A stretch of DNA of 64,000 nucleotides from positions 32,001 through 96,000 of the forward strand of contig JBBQUR010000013.1 in the NCBI GenBank assembly GCA_038212275.1, written 5' to 3'. The DNA comes from Planctomycetota bacterium (lineage in GTDB: Bacteria; Planctomycetota; B15-G4). Shown here piece by piece: positions 26,051-31,641 of the stretch. Each line of letters begins with the position of its first letter. Position 1 is the stretch's first letter. The position numbers and the translations under genes were made by a program. The notes beneath the pieces were generated by a model, which saw nothing but the letters and a program-made list of their open reading frames with translations, did no database searches and had not been told where the DNA came from.

Positions 26051-27372
26051 TGACCAGGCGCCGCGGGGGCCGACGGGCGTTGGGCGTGGCCCTCCTGCTT
26101 GTCCTGCTGGAACTCTCACTTCAGGCGGCCGGGCCGCTCGTCCAGCGGCTCATGGCGAGGCGCGATCCCGATCCGTCGCCCGATGCGAGGCTGACCATCC
26201 TGTGCGTTGGTGACAGCAACACCTACGGGCTGAGCCTGCCGCAGCTGTATGCCTATCCAGCCCTGCTGCAATCGCGGCTGGAGCAGCGCTTCCACCGGCC
26301 CGTCACGGTGGCCAATCGCGGAGTGCCCGGCCACAACACGGCGCAGGTGCTCGCCGCCCTGCCTCAGGACCTGGCCGACACGCACCCGGATCTCGTGCTG
26401 GTGCTCTGCGGCATCAACGACGCCTGGAACACGTCCGGCGAGGAGCGCGGACTCGTCGGATTCTTCGAGAAGCTCAAGCTCGTGCGCCTCGTGCGCGTCC
26501 TGATGTCGGGCGTCACGACTGCGGCGCCCTTCGCGGTCCGTTCCGACGAGCGAGGCGAATTCACCGTGGACCGTGGCAAGGGCGAGGAGCGCGTCAACGT
26601 GACGTCCACGGGGCTGGCCGTGCGCGCCGGCGAGGCGCTGCAGCAGCACGTGCGCGACGGCCTGACGGCCATCGTCGACCGATGTGCGGATGCAGGCGCC
26701 ACGCCGGTGCTCATGACCTACGCGGAGTCCGAGGGCGAATTTTCAGGCATCAACGCCACGTCGCGTGCACTGGCCGACGACCGAGGCCTGCTGCTCGTGG
26801 ATCACGAGCGGGCCTTCGGGGAGCGCTTCGGCACCGAAGGCCGCGAGGCGCTCATGTTCAACGATCACCACCCCAACGTGCGCGGCTACCAGCTCATGGC
26901 GGAACGGGTCGACGCCGTGCTCACGGCGGCGGGATGGGCTCCGCCGCTGGACGATTCGGTGGCGCCCGACACGACCGCGGAGGGGCAGCCCGCAACGGAC
27001 GCCGACATGGCACCCGCGCTGCTGAAGCTTCTTCCGGACGACCGACTGCGGCTCGACGGCCCCGCGGGGACCGCCTTCCTCGTGCTGCTGTCGCACGCCC
27101 CGGCCCCCGGCGGCGGCTTCGACGTGGACGGGCTGCACGTGCCCCTGGTCGACGACGAGGTCATGGCCATGTCGCGCATGGAGCCGGGCTTCTCGGGCCG
27201 GCTCGATGCGCTGGGACACGCCGAAATCCGCATCCCGCCTCGGCTGGTCGCCGCCGCCGGAAACGCCGGTCTCGTGGCCTGCATGCTGCTGCTCCGCGAC
27301 CCGGCCGCCGCCGCGGCACCCGGCGGCAGGGCGCTCCTGAGCGCCTCGGAGATGGTCGTCGTCGTCCCCTGA
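26050..27372 (+). CDS. SGNH/GDSL hydrolase with extra C-terminal domain
   Basis: Blocks GDSNTYG, NRGVPG, CGIND and NDHHPN; N-terminal TM helix. Confidence 0.85.
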   Translation: MTRRRGGRRALGVALLLVLLELSLQAAGPLVQRLMARRDPDPSPDARLTILCVGDSNTYGLSLPQLYAYPALLQSRLEQRFHRPVTVANRGVPGHNTAQVLAALPQDLADTHPDLVLVLCGINDAWNTSGEERGLVGFFEKLKLVRLVRVLMSGVTTAAPFAVRSDERGEFTVDRGKGEERVNVTSTGLAVRAGEALQQHVRDGLTAIVDRCADAGATPVLMTYAESEGEFSGINATSRALADDRGLLLVDHERAFGERFGTEGREALMFNDHHPNVRGYQLMAERVDAVLTAAGWAPPLDDSVAPDTTAEGQPATDADMAPALLKLLPDDRLRLDGPAGTAFLVLLSHAPAPGGGFDVDGLHVPLVDDEVMAMSRMEPGFSGRLDALGHAEIRIPPRLVAAAGNAGLVACMLLLRDPAAAAAPGGRALLSASEMVVVVP

Positions 27373-27408
27373 CCCCGCCACGGTGTGGCGTGCCGTCACG
27401 CCGACGGA

Positions 27409-27912
27409 TCAGCTCGCCAGTGCGACGCTGTCGCCGCCTCGCGCCACGACGCCGGCGAGGGCACCTTCGGCGCGCTTGAGGACGGCATCGAAGAAGATCG
27501 AGTCGTCGCCGTCCTGAGTGGCAACGCCGACGCTCGCCGAGATGCGGAGATTGCGATCATCGACGCGCACGTCGAGTCCCGCGATGCGATCGTGCAGCCG
27601 TTGCGCCAGGAGCTGCGCGCCCTTGGCATCGGTGTGCGGGAGCACGATGACGAAACGCTCGCCGAGGCGGCCCACGAAGTCGCAGCTGCGCGAATGACGA
27701 TTCAGCAGCTCCGCGACCGTGCTCTCCACCTGGTCGCGCACGGCCGATCCGTGCAGGTCGCCGAGACCGCCCAGGCGATCGATCTCGACCAGCACGCACG
27801 ACAGCTGGTACTGGTACCGGCGAGCCCTGGCGAACTCGATCTTCAAGAGGTGCAGGATCTGCGTGTAGGAAAAGACTCCTGCCTCGCCGCTGTCCCGGTC
27901 CCGTTCGTCCAT
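27409..27912 (-). CDS. Stand-alone degenerate GGDEF-domain protein
   Basis: EFARARRYQYQLSCVLVEID, RSCDFVGRLGERFVIVLP, ISASVGVA; GGAG SD before ATG 27912. Confidence 0.85.
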   Translation of the reverse strand: MDERDRDSGEAGVFSYTQILHLLKIEFARARRYQYQLSCVLVEIDRLGGLGDLHGSAVRDQVESTVAELLNRHSRSCDFVGRLGERFVIVLPHTDAKGAQLLAQRLHDRIAGLDVRVDDRNLRISASVGVATQDGDDSIFFDAVLKRAEGALAGVVARGGDSVALAS

Positions 27913-27982
27913 GTCACTCCCTGGCGCCACCCCGTTCCGGGCATGGCGGAAGCGCGGGAGGATACCGAACGAAGGGGGCCCG

Positions 27983-28022
27983 AAAACAAAGTTGGTCCTG
28001 CCCGTGACCGGGCAGGACCAAC
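27983..28022 (-). terminator. Rho-independent terminator
   Basis: Perfect 14-bp inverted repeat GTTGGTCCTGCCCG / 4-nt loop / CGGGCAGGACCAAC (27991-28022), followed on the minus strand by UUUGUUUU. Confidence 0.85.
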
Positions 28023-28140
28023 ACGTTCCAGTCGGAAGCCCATAGGGCTGGAGATGGCGGTTGGGGAGGGAAAAACTGCTCTAGCCCTACACTCCTCCGA
28101 CTCGGATTCATTCGGAGCCACGCCGACTCGTCCGCGCGGC
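27983..28140 (-). ncRNA. Candidate small RNA or structured leader of about 160 nt
   Basis: Bounded by a minus-strand promoter and terminator; internal long hairpin 28031-28101 with loop UUUUUCCCUCCCCAA; no credible ORF. Confidence 0.6.
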
Positions 28141-28146
28141 AGCCGA

Positions 28147-28175
28147 ATAGTGCCTCCCCCCTCCGCGGCTGTCAA
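28147..28175 (-). promoter_or_regulatory. Sigma70-type promoter driving the candidate small RNA
   Basis: TTGACA (28175-28170), 17-nt spacer, CACTAT (28152-28147). Confidence 0.6.
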
Positions 28176-28381
28176 CTCGCCCACAGGCTGCTGACAGGTT
28201 ATCCACCGTGTCGTCGGCGCCGCATTCCTCAGCTGGGACGGCACAAGCACCTGCTGATCAAGCACTTGCGAATAGTCTGAGAGGGCACCCGTCGTGCGGC
28301 CCCAGCCGCCAGGCCCGACACCGCGGTGAGCCGCTTCGCATCGCGCCGTGCTCGCGGGCCACGGCACCAGCGGACGTCCAG

Positions 28382-29461
28382 TCAGGGGCTGCGGGGTGGT
28401 GCCACCGGCTGGTCGGCAGGTGCGAGCGGCGCCGGCGGGTACGCGCCGCCGGCCGCGGGTGGTGCCGTCGTGGCGGCCGACAGATTGCGCATGTCCTCCA
28501 CGACGGCGAGGAAGTCGGGTCGCTCCCGCAAGCTTGCGAGGTCGCCGTCCTCGAGCATCCAGGCGACGTCCGTGAAGCCGACCGCGTAGGCGGACCGCAA
28601 GTGAGCCAGCGCCTCCTCGGGCCTGTTCGACAACGCGGCGATGCAGGCGAGGTTGTAGTGGGCCCAGCGTGTCTCGCGCATTCCCGGAAGTGCATCGCAG
28701 AGCTTGTGGAACCACTCGCCGGCATGCACGAAATCGTCGAACTGCTGGTAGTGGTAGCCGATGTCGAAGATCACCTGCCGCTTGAAGTTGATCGTGGGCG
28801 AGTAGTCGTTCGGGATGCTCGGATCGAGCAGCATCGCCATGTCGCGGTGGATGTAGTGCTCCATCACGCGGATCTTCTCGAGCACGGCATCCGGTTGGCC
28901 GTCCTTGGCAAGGGCGAAGCGCGCATGCTGGCTGAGGTCGGCGGCACGAACGGCCAGCACGAGCGCTGGATCGTCCGTCGCAAAACGCTCGTTCCAGGCC
29001 TGCAGTTCGATGCCGAACTCCTGCTCCGGCGACAGCAGCAGGGGCGCCAGCGCGGTGGCCAGGGACTCGCCGCTGGCCGCCTCCTGCATCGCCATGACCG
29101 CCATGATGCGCAGGACGTGCTGCATGGACGGCTCGGCGGCGACGGCCGCCAGTTCATCGAAGCGCCCTGCCGTGCTCTTGAACTGCCCGTCGAAGAAACC
29201 CGGCACGCCGCCATCGCGCAATCCGGCTGCCAGCTCGAGAGCCACGGAAGGGATCTCGTCGAGCGGGCCCGGCTGCCGCGCCGTCGTGCCACGCTCCAGA
29301 TACCAGGGCGAGTCCGGCTGACCCGCCCCCGGCGCGCCGGCCGATGGCCCCGGAGCGCCGGAAGCGGGCGCCCCGACCTGCGCAAGGCCAGGCCCCGAGC
29401 CGGCCGCCTGCAGGACCATCGTGAGCATCGACACCACCAGCCGTCGTCGCATCGTGGTCAC
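28382..29461 (-). CDS. Secreted protein with C-terminal TPR domain
   Basis: Signal-like N-terminus; HYNLACIAALSNRPEEALAHL..GF....EDGDLASLR terminal TPR motif. Confidence 0.75.
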   Translation of the reverse strand: MTTMRRRLVVSMLTMVLQAAGSGPGLAQVGAPASGAPGPSAGAPGAGQPDSPWYLERGTTARQPGPLDEIPSVALELAAGLRDGGVPGFFDGQFKSTAGRFDELAAVAAEPSMQHVLRIMAVMAMQEAASGESLATALAPLLLSPEQEFGIELQAWNERFATDDPALVLAVRAADLSQHARFALAKDGQPDAVLEKIRVMEHYIHRDMAMLLDPSIPNDYSPTINFKRQVIFDIGYHYQQFDDFVHAGEWFHKLCDALPGMRETRWAHYNLACIAALSNRPEEALAHLRSAYAVGFTDVAWMLEDGDLASLRERPDFLAVVEDMRNLSAATTAPPAAGGAYPPAPLAPADQPVAPPRSP

Positions 29462-29476
29462 GCCGGACTCCTCACT

Positions 29477-30745
29477 TCAGGGAACGTGCACGCGCAGGTA
29501 GCGCCGCTTGCCCGCCTGCAGCAGATAGCCTGCGCCGCGGGCGAGGCGCTGCTGTTCGTCGACGACGCGCACGCCGTCCACCCGCACGCCGCCATCCTTG
29601 ATGAGCCTGCGCGCTGCGGAGGATGACTCGGCAAGGCCGCCGTGCGTCAGCACGCGCACGATCCACGCGCCCCCTGCCTCCAGCAGCTCCTCGGGCAGCG
29701 TGATCTCCTCGATCACGTCCGGCAGCCCCTTGTCACGGAACATGCGGTCGAACTCGGAGGCGGCGCCGGCGGCCGCATCCTCGCCGTGGAAGCGCTCGAC
29801 GATCGCCGTCGCCAGGGCAGCCTTGGCGTCGCGTGGCGAACCGGCCAGCAGCTCTGCGACACGCCCCGGCGGGAGCTCCGTCGCAAGCGCGAACCACTCG
29901 GGCATCAACGGATCCGGCAGGCTCATCGTCTTGCCGAACATGTCGCGCGGAGCGTCCGTGATCCCGATGCAGTTGCCGAGACTCTTGGACATCTTCGCGC
30001 TGCCGTCGAGACCGGTGAGGATCGGCAGCGTGACGCACACCTGTGCTTCCATGCCCGCCTCGCGCATGAGGTCGCGCCCCACGAGCAGGTTGAAGGTCTG
30101 ATCGGTCCCGCCGATCTCGATGTCTGCGCGCACCTCGACCGAATCCTTCGCCTGCATGAGCGGGTAGAGCAGCTCGTGGATGCCGACGGGGATGCCCGCC
30201 TTCATGCGCTCCGCGAAGGTGTCGCGTTCGAGCATGCGCGCCACCGTCATCCAGGAGCCGAGCTTGATCGCATCCATGAACGTCATGCTGGAGAACCAGG
30301 CGTTGTTGTAGACGACCTCGACTCCGTCCATGTCGAGCAGCAGGCGGGCCTGCTCGAAGTAGGTCCGCGCGTTCTGGGCCACCTGTTCGGCGCTGAGCTG
30401 CGGGCGCGTGAGGTTCTTGCCGGACGGATCGCCGACCCGCGCCGTCGCGTCGCCGATGATGAGCACCGGCACGTGCCCGAGTCGCTGCAGGCGGCGCAGG
30501 TAGCGGAGCTGCACCGCGTGCCCGATGTGAAGATCCGGCGAGGACGGGTCCACGCCCAGCTTCACGCGCAACGGCCGGCCGAGCGCAAGCTTGGCCTGCA
30601 GGTCCTCGCGCGTGTTGCAGGCCACCGTGCCCTGCAGGATCTCCTGGACGGCGGACTCCACGGCCTCCGCGCGCCGCACACCGGCGGCCCCCGCGGCCCC
30701 GGCGGCCCCGGCGGCACCCGCGGCATCCGCGGCATCCGGATTCAG
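29477..30745 (-). CDS. tyrS: Tyrosine--tRNA ligase
   Basis: KLGVDPSSPDLHIGH, GDPSGK, YPLMQ, GGTDQ, KMSKS, C-terminal S4 domain; start uncertain (CTG 30745 or GTG 30679). Confidence 0.95.
   Translation of the reverse strand: MNPDAADAAGAAGAAGAAGAAGVRRAEAVESAVQEILQGTVACNTREDLQAKLALGRPLRVKLGVDPSSPDLHIGHAVQLRYLRRLQRLGHVPVLIIGDATARVGDPSGKNLTRPQLSAEQVAQNARTYFEQARLLLDMDGVEVVYNNAWFSSMTFMDAIKLGSWMTVARMLERDTFAERMKAGIPVGIHELLYPLMQAKDSVEVRADIEIGGTDQTFNLLVGRDLMREAGMEAQVCVTLPILTGLDGSAKMSKSLGNCIGITDAPRDMFGKTMSLPDPLMPEWFALATELPPGRVAELLAGSPRDAKAALATAIVERFHGEDAAAGAASEFDRMFRDKGLPDVIEEITLPEELLEAGGAWIVRVLTHGGLAESSSAARRLIKDGGVRVDGVRVVDEQQRLARGAGYLLQAGKRRYLRVHVP
30681..30736. repeat. Imperfect 9-bp tandem repeat, about 6 units, at the tyrS 5' end
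   Basis: Units ccggcggcc/cccgcggcc/ccggcggcc/ccggcggca/cccgcggca/tccgcggca; encodes DAADAAGAAGAAGAAG in the tyrS frame. Confidence 0.8.
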
Positions 30746-31641
30746 AGGCCGCCCTCCGTCGGAGCGGCCGGCGCCGTGGGATGGCTCGGCGCCGCCTGAC
30801 GCCGGTCGTTCGCTGCTGCGCGTGCCTTCCACCAGGTGCTCCAGCGGTAGATGTCGCGACCGTGCGTTTCGCCGGTCAGGTAGAGGAGAGCCGCGAACAC
30901 TGCGCCCCGCGCCGGCTCCGGCGTCGCGGGCAGCGCCTCGATGAGCGTGGCGAGAGTCCCCTCGCGACGATCCGCCGGCGCGCTGGCGGCGCTCAGGAAG
31001 ATACCCGGCACGGACAGCGATTGCAGGTGCTGCGCCAACGTTCCGGGCGGCACCTCGGCAAGGCTCTCGAGCGTCACCACGGGCAGCGGGAGCAGCGTGC
31101 CGCCGGTGTGGCACGTCTCCTGACGCAGGTCGATGCCGATGATGCGTGCGCGGACGACGACTCGCCGGGCCAGCACTTTCTCGGCGGGCGGCAAGCTCAC
31201 GACGCTTTCCACCACGAGCGGCGCACCCGCCTGCGCGACGCCGGACTTCACGAACGGCACGATGAATCGTTCCGAGTGGCCGAGACTGCGCGGCTCTGCG
31301 CCCTCGAAGTCGGTCCAGGTCACGTCGAGATCCAGCACGCTGGCCTCGTCCGGAGTCGTGGGGTCGCTGCGGATGCCGACCACCTCGACCGGCAGCACTT
31401 CCGTGGTGGACAGGGTCACGCGAGTGGCGAGCCGCACGGCCGGACCACCGTCCAGCGCCGCGAGCTGGATGCGGGCGGACACGGGGACAGCCACAAGAGG
31501 CAGGACCACCGCAGGCGGCGGCGACTCGCAGGCCAGCGCCGTGAGCGCCATCGCGAGACAGGCCGCCGACACGCGCCGTCCGGCGATCGCGGACAGGGCC
31601 GCGATCGCCGGGCGTGCGCCTGGATCAGCCGCTGGCGCCAT
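30742..31641 (-). CDS. Hypothetical lipoprotein
   Basis: Signal segment ending LTALAC; C-terminal ALLYLTGETHG....WSTWW motif; lies between rpsA and tyrS on the same strand. Confidence 0.6.
   Translation of the reverse strand: MAPAADPGARPAIAALSAIAGRRVSAACLAMALTALACESPPPAVVLPLVAVPVSARIQLAALDGGPAVRLATRVTLSTTEVLPVEVVGIRSDPTTPDEASVLDLDVTWTDFEGAEPRSLGHSERFIVPFVKSGVAQAGAPLVVESVVSLPPAEKVLARRVVVRARIIGIDLRQETCHTGGTLLPLPVVTLESLAEVPPGTLAQHLQSLSVPGIFLSAASAPADRREGTLATLIEALPATPEPARGAVFAALLYLTGETHGRDIYRWSTWWKARAAANDRRQAAPSHPTAPAAPTEGGL

Follow-up and report, generated by a model that had tools for sequence, protein, structure and literature searches.

The RNA gene and its signals

The subject of this analysis is a small RNA (sRNA) gene on the minus strand of the window, by which we mean the whole 64,000-nucleotide (nt) stretch of Planctomycetota bacterium DNA under study. 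The sRNA gene lies between a gene for a TPR-like protein and a gene for a degenerate GGDEF-domain protein. It is an independent, single-copy, non-coding RNA gene of about 157 nt that runs from about 28140 to 27983 and has a sigma-70-type promoter. Its features, in the direction of transcription, are as follows.

28176..28207, minus strand: upstream region with GGTGGA / CTGTCA / TGTGGG repeats about 11 nt apart, a candidate regulator site
28170..28175, minus strand: −35 hexamer TTGACA, as read in the window; TTGAC(A/G/T) in 16 of 16 same-family loci
28153..28169, minus strand: 17-nt spacer between −35 and −10, as read in the window
28147..28152, minus strand: −10 hexamer CACTAT, 17 nt past the −35 hexamer and conserved in the family
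27983..28140, minus strand: predicted primary transcript of about 157 nt, its 5′ end placed from the −10 position and its 3′ end from the U tract
28118..28139, minus strand: SL1, the 5′ stem-loop, variable in sequence and predicted as a hairpin in 16 of 16 family members
28102..28117, minus strand: single-stranded linker, CUCCGAAUGAAUCCGA in the window and often ACGAGAUCCA in relatives
28031..28101, minus strand: SL2, the long hairpin that bears the invariant loop, from the fold and family covariation
28054..28078, minus strand: 25-nt apical loop CAGUUUUUCCCUCCCCAACCGCCAU, C-rich and closed by G28079-C28053, A28080-U28052 and G28081-C28051
28052..28070, minus strand: invariant core CCCUCCCCAACCGCCAUCU, 19 nt, of which the first 17 lie in the apical loop and the last 2 open the closing stem
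27991..28022, minus strand: SL3, the intrinsic terminator stem-loop, with 14 bp (10 G-C) and a 4-nt loop
27983..27990, minus strand: U tract UUUGUUUU, directly after the terminator stem

The TTGACA-17 nt-CACTAT promoter had been proposed in an earlier note on this DNA; it is present in the window and is backed by all 16 same-family loci, in which the pattern TTGACN-17-xAxxxT is kept. At the fixed 17-nt spacing, position 2 of the −10 hexamer is A in 15 of the 16 loci and position 6 is T in every one. A consensus promoter scan lists no promoter at the CACTAT site of the window because this hexamer agrees with TATAAT at just three of six positions, and for this reason the promoter call rests on conservation in the 16 family loci. 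Inspection by eye of other families reveals extended −10-like TGTGnTAnnnT or TATAAT-like elements upstream of the RNA at a similar distance.

The motif YGTGG occurs in one to three copies, about 11 nt apart, upstream of the −35 hexamer in 16/16 same-family loci (95 nt upstream examined; no statistics). The YGTGG(A/G) repeats sit directly upstream of the −35 hexamer in the window and at the same place in loci L002-L016, and the reverse complement of the repeat, TTTTCCACA, is found upstream of the distant members L034, L035, L048, L056, L064, L067 and L109. The YGTGG(A/G) repeat may be bound by a regulator that is conserved throughout the phylum. A regulon search for TGTGG-N4-7-TTGAC in the window's genome returned 3 sites versus 21 for the reversed control and was unusable.

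The perfect 14-bp terminator with a U tract, also described in the earlier note, was recovered at 28022-27991 and is followed by UUUGUUUU. All 16 family members have a perfect terminator stem of 13-14 bp, and the predicted length of the RNA across these members ranges from 149 to 174 nt, compared with 157 nt for the window. Conservation of this kind argues for a promoter and an intrinsic terminator that belong to the RNA gene itself. Two open reading frames (ORFs) overlap the stretch, one of 65 amino acids at 27914-28111 and one of 32 amino acids at 28108-28206. Neither bears out a coding function: the small-ORF reading (FPPQPPS and similar) was ruled out by the lack of a conserved start codon and by nucleotides that are invariant at every codon position, the would-be wobble positions included. 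The stretch had been described as free of a credible ORF, and this description stands in that the ORFs there show no coding-type conservation. The comparison thus points to a gene that is non-coding and has a covarying secondary structure, as expected of an sRNA gene.

A covarying hairpin around an invariant loop

The minimum free energy of the 171-nt stretch is −88.1 kcal/mol, compared with −65.6 (standard deviation (sd) 4.5) in 200 dinucleotide shuffles, none of which is as stable (z = −5.0). The fold contains the long hairpin with a C-rich apical loop that the earlier note had drawn at 28031-28101, and this hairpin is confirmed in full. Folding of the 16 family sequences with RNAalifold yields 18 pairs in the long hairpin and 13 in the terminator. 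Changes on both sides are observed at 11 of these 31 family pairs, and compensatory change is seen at 9 of 18 long-hairpin pairs and 3 of 13 terminator pairs.

When RNAalifold was applied to a mixed MAFFT alignment of 65 sequences, no structure was returned because pairing registers differ between lineages; the named 13-bp stem was therefore counted, and the family folded, separately. For this 13-pair stem, 75.7% of cells pair across 65 distinct sequences from all lineages, compared with 62.7% (sd 1.0) after shuffling, and the covariation score is 0.416 versus 0.217, such that none of 500 shuffles reaches either value; the sequences in this count are related and the MAFFT alignment is imperfect. 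All six slid registers of the stem score below the named register.

The loop core reads CCCUCCCCAACCGCC(A/C)UCU and is fixed in all members while the stem sequences differ. Variation in the core was seen at two positions: position 16 is either A or C, and position 8 is changed from C to U in two genomes of family f47 (L133, L134). As judged from the alignments, the element conserved everywhere is the long hairpin, the stem of which varies by compensatory substitutions while the loop core stays fixed.

An exact-core scan over one genome per species gave at least 79 loci. Titles among the matches listed are nearly all Planctomycetota bacterium, Phycisphaerales, Phycisphaeraceae, Isosphaeraceae, Singulisphaera or Planctomycetia. 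One locus, L090, comes from a metagenome-assembled genome labelled Phycisphaera mikurensis. Thirteen exact-core loci (L033, 39, 42, 45, 46, 53, 59, 61, 68, 75, 92, 105 and 106) were set aside as chance matches, being from other phyla or having no hairpin. Among the matches listed, 64 of 80 distinct sites form a hairpin of at least 10 bp with the core as its loop, and a U run follows a hairpin in 59 of these 64: 43 structured sites have a separate terminator hairpin and U run, in 16 the long hairpin leads straight into the U run, and the remaining 5 show neither arrangement. To accept a site, the automatic hairpin rule demanded a formed closing helix, 10 or more enclosing pairs and no fewer than 10 unpaired bases among the first 15 of the core, and it misfiles about four sites relative to folds read by eye (L068 wrongly in; L072, L083 and L084 wrongly out). 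The plan shared at the printed sites is a hairpin of differing stem sequence that presents the same loop core, with a terminator after it.

One terminator deserves separate description. The sequence AAUUUUCCCCCGNAAGGGGGAAAAUU is near-identical across families f2 and f5 despite the differing outer stem of the long hairpin, and is found at L018, L019, L023-L026, L028, L032, L036, L037, L043, L065, L086 and L090. The UUUCCCC of the loop recurs in the 5′ arm of this terminator, where it may be a second C-rich element or a competing pairing.

How widely is the RNA distributed? A BLAST search of 61 related genomes with a 211-nt query gave matches in 30, the window's own genome included, and all 15 other same-family genomes match. 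The family matches span about 80-205 of the query (28101 to about 27976) at 77-88% identity, which corresponds to the long hairpin and terminator; outside the family just about 25 nt align, at 93-100% identity. A covariance model (R1) of the loop with 9 closing pairs, built from 49 sequences from outside the family, matches 39 of the 40 order genomes, as a rule once per genome, and these include 19 of the 19 that are at least 90% complete. The sole miss in the order, G039, is an 84% complete assembly in 900 contigs, and one order genome (G017) has a weak second match. In genomes sampled evenly across the phylum R1 matches 22 of 151, in 11 families (f1, f2, f7, f16, f23, f37, f46, f47, f50, f67 and f74); this count is a lower bound because the search used stricter filters and the model derives from exact-core seeds. 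In another genome a weaker second match of 31.6 bits (L135, the same as L092; G108:C19) has an exact core, a poor stem and no terminator beside a full copy elsewhere in that genome, and may be a decayed duplicate or a chance match. On this sampling, the RNA gene is near-universal in one planctomycete order and patchy elsewhere, in at least 10 further families. The homologues and the covariation of stems around an invariant loop are as the sRNA proposed in the earlier note would predict.

Public metatranscriptomes provide an expression hint. An index of public runs returned four metatranscriptomes of four studies (three soil, one decaying wood), in each of which 6-7% of the words sampled from a 1-kb stretch were present. 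Contigs of 79-250 nt and depth 2-5 from these runs were compared with 27850-28300 and match just 27938-28107, mostly 27977-28107, at 90-99% likeness. Their coverage is that of the conserved hairpin and terminator, and their flanks are unlike the window, as expected for relatives; for the same reason, the lack of any contig match outside 27938-28107 is uninformative. The match of one contig ends at 27989, two bases inside the U tract, beyond which the contig has 15 A in the RNA sense. Such a continuation fits the 3′ end of an A-tailed RNA, as a hint only.

Is the RNA already known? A cmscan search with 4227 Rfam 15 models over 26500-29500 on both strands, with permissive filters and E up to 10, gave eight weak matches, of which none covers 27983-28140 on the minus strand. 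A plus-strand match to Pseudomonas P11 is the only one that overlaps, scoring 13.6 bits where the gathering score is 70. The same search assigns the RNA to none of 6C (RF01066), RsaE (RF01820), c-di-GMP-I (RF01051) and c-di-GMP-II (RF01786). The novelty claimed in the earlier note therefore survives comparison with Rfam, and its description of an unrecognised sRNA agrees with the conserved promoter and terminator, the covarying stems, the presence in 39/40 order genomes and metatranscriptome contigs limited to the sRNA.

A literature search on planctomycete small RNAs returned no pertinent paper, and a search for the loop sequence as text returned no relevant one, the supplements of a 2017 candidate-RNA study lying outside this search. 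The motifs of that study, which covered 224 candidate RNAs, are reportedly largely deposited in Rfam. Planctomycetes and GGDEF are both absent, by term search, from a 2026 preprint on prokaryotic non-coding sequence space. In a 2025 review covering a century of planctomycete research (PMC12673574), a term search of the main text for sRNA, small RNA, non-coding, noncoding, riboswitch and c-di-GMP gave no occurrence. In the covered part of Weinberg et al. 2010 (PMC2864571), one candidate RNA alone, the Rhodopirellula-1 motif, is associated with planctomycetes. Like the sRNA it is a candidate structured RNA from Planctomycetes, and the alignment given there (AACAA..GAU..GAAC..) is unlike the sRNA sequence, so that identity of the two was ruled out on that part of the source (PMC2864571). 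The string CCCUCCCC from the loop occurs 16 times in the covered supplements of the same paper (PMC2864571), with none seen there in a planctomycete motif.

The degenerate GGDEF neighbour

Two protein-coding genes flank the RNA gene.

27409..27912, minus strand: stand-alone degenerate GGDEF-domain gene, 167 amino acids from the ATG at 27912 (PF00990, E 3.5e-18)
28382..29461, minus strand: upstream neighbour, a TPR-like (TPR/HEAT-like) protein with a signal-peptide-like N-terminus by inspection, just downstream of tyrS

The earlier note's view of a dead GGDEF gene was upheld, since the downstream protein has a PF00990 domain in which the motif is replaced by LGERF. The GG(D/E)EF active site expected of an active diguanylate cyclase is thus absent from the neighbour gene, and RxxD is kept as RSCD. 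In 37 orthologue rows the GGDEF motif is degenerate throughout (LGERF, LGDRF, MGERM, YQDRI, NELGI and similar), and RxxD, five residues upstream of the GGDEF site, is kept in all rows shown. RxxD is the I-site for cyclic di-GMP (c-di-GMP).

Downstream of the RNA, 26 of the 30 loci L001-L030 carry a GGDEF homologue on the same strand; they include all 16 family loci, and the exceptions are L017, L023, L026 and L028. Such a gene is also downstream in the distant families f23 (L126 and L127; 41-45% identity) and f47 (L133 and L134). Within the family the GGDEF protein shares 72-84% identity, compared with 46-60% for the upstream TPR-like protein, the gene for which is found in 23 of the 30 loci L001-L030, in some cases partial at the locus edge. 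Members that have no downstream GGDEF gene are L017, L023, L026, L028, L113, L115, L118-L124 and L128, and the next gene is convergent in L017/L117 and L115. Where the U tract comes directly after the long hairpin, the neighbouring genes encode a CarboxypepD_reg-repeat protein, a HEAT protein and a Sua5-LMWPc fusion. In three genomes of family f9 a short GGDEF gene that resembles an orthologue (86-114 bits) has no such hairpin in the 400 nt upstream of it, and at least seven families with the RNA have just a weak multidomain best GGDEF match, with E between 1e-10 and 1e-19. The conserved position beside a dead, I-site-bearing GGDEF gene suggests that the RNA takes part in a c-di-GMP-related circuit.

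Several further observations concern these neighbourhoods. Loci L005-L010, L015 and L004 carry TTCAG[GC]-N16-18-GATAnn between the sRNA terminator and the GGDEF gene, and in several loci a GTG start lies only 6-7 nt after a GATAAT-like hexamer, such that the GGDEF mRNA would be leaderless or nearly so. In f47 the gene immediately after the degenerate GGDEF gene encodes a response regulator and sigma-54 activator (L133:2373-3059, L134:5-1399). A type II secretion or pilus platform gene (T2SSF) is the other neighbour at L018, L019, L022, L025 and L133, which include several Phycisphaerales. Farther upstream in the window, the tyrS ORF spans 29477-31114 on the minus strand and encodes 545 amino acids, of which the synthetase domain begins only at residue 180; either tyrS has a long N-terminal extension or the start of its ORF is over-called.

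Proposed function and related RNAs

A fundamental question is what an invariant C-rich loop on a variable stem would do. The reading that we prefer, and to which we give roughly even chances, is that the sRNA is a trans-acting, chaperone-independent regulator of the 6C/RsaE type that acts through its loop. The C-rich loops of actinobacterial 6C RNA and of firmicute RsaE/RoxS are described as pairing with G-rich ribosome-binding sites without a chaperone. By analogy, the loop of the sRNA would be its working part and would base pair in trans with G-rich mRNA stretches, typically Shine-Dalgarno regions of the GGGGAGGG type, and such pairing would block ribosome binding or change mRNA stability. 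Searches of the window's genome (91% complete) found no gene for Hfq, CsrA or ProQ, and because of this the G-C-rich nature of the pairing would stand in for a chaperone. Distant members in which the next gene is convergent, or in which there is no GGDEF gene, indicate that the RNA probably acts in trans rather than in cis.

The loop had been called anti-Shine-Dalgarno-like in the earlier note, and as a proposal this is plausible. CCUCC is present in the loop within CCCUCCCC, and the 16S rRNA of the window's genome has the canonical 3′ end CACCUCCUUUCU; scans of the genome, the rRNAs, the tRNA and tmRNA genes and ribosome-binding sites revealed no conserved target. Around start codons of this 70% GC genome, the top candidate of a ribosome-binding-site scan is a VIT1-like transporter at −31.7 kcal/mol, in a scan dominated by G runs and spurious ORFs. 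A second candidate, the GGCGGAUUAGGGGAGGGG site on contig C29, was rejected since it lies about 120 nt upstream of the real start. By eye, across about 30 loci, the ribosome-binding site of the GGDEF gene has no conserved G-rich complement to the loop. Long G runs are also seen at the contig ends of the window's genome assembly, G000 C24 (near 52) and C6 (near 41-51); these runs swamped the naive target scan and are probably artefacts of assembly or sequencing. Among exact complements of 11-14 nt, the lone other 13-mer sits within a coding start and has the sense of the loop itself, which is the wrong one.

Several results weigh against a trans-acting RNA that pairs through its loop. The only loop complement of at least 14 nt in the window's genome is the gene's own antisense strand. 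The VIT1-like gene is found in just 11 of 42 order genomes and its complementarity is not kept, which removes it as a target. The 16S and partial 23S rRNAs offer only bulged, GC-driven duplexes with the loop, and no convincing complementarity is seen in the 51 tRNA and tmRNA genes. Near-complements of the 15-nt core, with three mismatches at most, were counted in four relatives of lower GC and show no excess over the reversed control (for example, 239 versus 246 and 336 versus 276), and no site has a single mismatch. The 19 invariant nt exceed what a pairing seed usually needs and fit recognition by a protein at least as well. The metatranscriptome contigs are assemblies from relatives in which strand, level and ends are not reliably shown and DNA carry-over is uncontrolled. 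Finally, the distance from the U tract to the ATG at 27912 in the window is about 70 nt, with no separate promoter recognisable there, an arrangement that would suit a leader of the GGDEF gene.

Since no target was found, a protein partner remains a serious rival, and we regard it as a tentative possibility that the RNA works through a protein. In that case a conserved protein would bind the invariant loop in a sequence-specific manner and be sequestered or scaffolded by it, or hand it over; the degenerate GGDEF protein is a candidate for this partner, or for a controller of the turnover of the RNA. In E. coli the degenerate GGDEF-EAL protein CsrD controls the turnover of the RNAs CsrB and CsrC. 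The rationale for a protein partner is that 19 nt stay invariant across families whose GGDEF orthologues share just about 40% identity, which is hard to explain by mRNA seeds alone, and that no complementary RNA partner was found. Moreover, the RNA and GGDEF genes are adjacent on the same strand in 26/30 loci and also in f23 and f47, and the GGDEF protein, conserved far better (72-84%) than the other neighbour (46-60%) within the family, has kept RxxD while losing GGDEF. The RNA is also single-copy and near-universal in the order, like housekeeping RNAs. A partnership with the GGDEF protein in particular is opposed by the families, at least seven, in which the RNA accompanies only a weak multidomain GGDEF match, and by f9, which has the orthologue-like gene with no RNA upstream. 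No known RNA-binding domain is present in the neighbourhood, and the upstream TPR protein looks exported, having a signal-peptide-like N-terminus by eye.

A related hypothesis, which we consider doubtful, is that this is a housekeeping-type Planctomycetota RNA whose invariant loop of 19-25 nt would be read by a conserved protein or ribonucleoprotein, possibly a dead GGDEF domain that resembles a c-di-GMP receptor. Compatible with it are the single copy, the near-universal presence in the order, the assembly of the RNA from soil metatranscriptomes, the lack of a complementary RNA and the recurrent upstream TGTGG(A/G) in either orientation. If true, RNA and protein would form a new module linking the sensing of a second messenger to RNA function.

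Could the sRNA instead be a cis-acting 5′ leader of the GGDEF gene, with read-through of the terminator when a factor binds the loop? The GGDEF gene does follow on the same strand in 26 of 30 loci, and read-through into it is possible in the window. As the main function, this role, which had been put forward in the earlier note as a leader that gates the GGDEF gene, was not upheld and is improbable: the RNA occurs without the GGDEF gene and sometimes faces a convergent gene, and a dedicated attenuator is therefore unlikely. Half of the family loci (8 of 16) have the TTCAG[GC]-N16-18-GATAnn promoter-like motif between terminator and GGDEF gene, the spacing from terminator to start varies from about 60 to more than 200 nt, and the terminator is a perfect stem in all 16 members. 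The family consensus contains no conserved alternative (antiterminator) pairing of the mutually exclusive kind expected of an attenuator, and the RNA is not always upstream of, and co-oriented with, the GGDEF gene. The weak antiterminator suggested from CGUGGCU and GGUCACG falls away, as these segments lie in the 5′ stem-loop and the terminator loop, both of which are freely variable in relatives.

It is very improbable that the element is the 3′ end of the mRNA of the upstream TPR or CarboxypepD_reg-repeat gene, as a 3′-untranslated-region structure or an sRNA processed from one, because the same-strand upstream gene at most loci and the U tract directly after the long hairpin in 16 of 64 structured sites (among the matches listed) are set against a conserved −35/−10 between upstream gene and RNA in 16/16 family loci, an element convergent to the CarboxypepD_reg gene in L115 and L117, a 25-nt loop that makes a poor terminator and, weakly because the contigs come from relatives, contigs that diverge right upstream of 28101-28107 and do not run into the TPR gene.

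The sRNA would provide an entry point into post-transcriptional control in Planctomycetota, a phylum for which the searched literature describes no RNA-based regulation. Its usable features are one copy in nearly every order genome, a clear functional element, a recognisable promoter with a likely regulator site and a fixed neighbour of the c-di-GMP signalling type. An Rfam covariance model is merited and would improve the annotation of many planctomycete metagenome-assembled genomes.

Among known systems, 6C RNA of Actinobacteria (RF01066) offers a close parallel in design. Both RNAs have their own promoter and terminator, are conserved across a whole high-GC lineage and present fixed C-run hairpin loops on varying stems in hosts that lack Hfq (for the sRNA, none was found), and 6C RNA is reported to pair with G-rich mRNA sites. 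The two differ in phylum and have no sequence or structure match (cmscan to E = 10). The sRNA has one 25-nt C-rich loop whereas 6C has two short ones, its core reaches beyond C runs (AACCGCC), unlike that of 6C, and only the sRNA has a fixed degenerate-GGDEF neighbourhood.

RsaE/RoxS of Firmicutes (RF01820) and the UCCC loops of S. aureus RNAIII have, like the sRNA, unpaired C-rich motifs complementary to the Shine-Dalgarno sequence and a 3′ terminator hairpin, and they act independently of a chaperone, as is proposed for the sRNA. Those RNAs carry several short UCCC or CCCC motifs and have known targets, whereas the sRNA has a single long invariant loop, no target found and no Rfam match. CsrB and CsrC of E. 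coli are small RNAs functionally tied to a degenerate GGDEF-domain protein, CsrD, and a tie of this kind is possible for the sRNA. They bear many GGA loops and bind CsrA, whereas the sRNA is free of GGA repeats and its genome yielded no CsrA gene; membrane, HAMP-like and EAL parts belong to CsrD, whereas the neighbour of the sRNA is a bare 167-amino-acid GGDEF domain. Set beside these systems, the sRNA is apparently an undescribed RNA family of a familiar kind.

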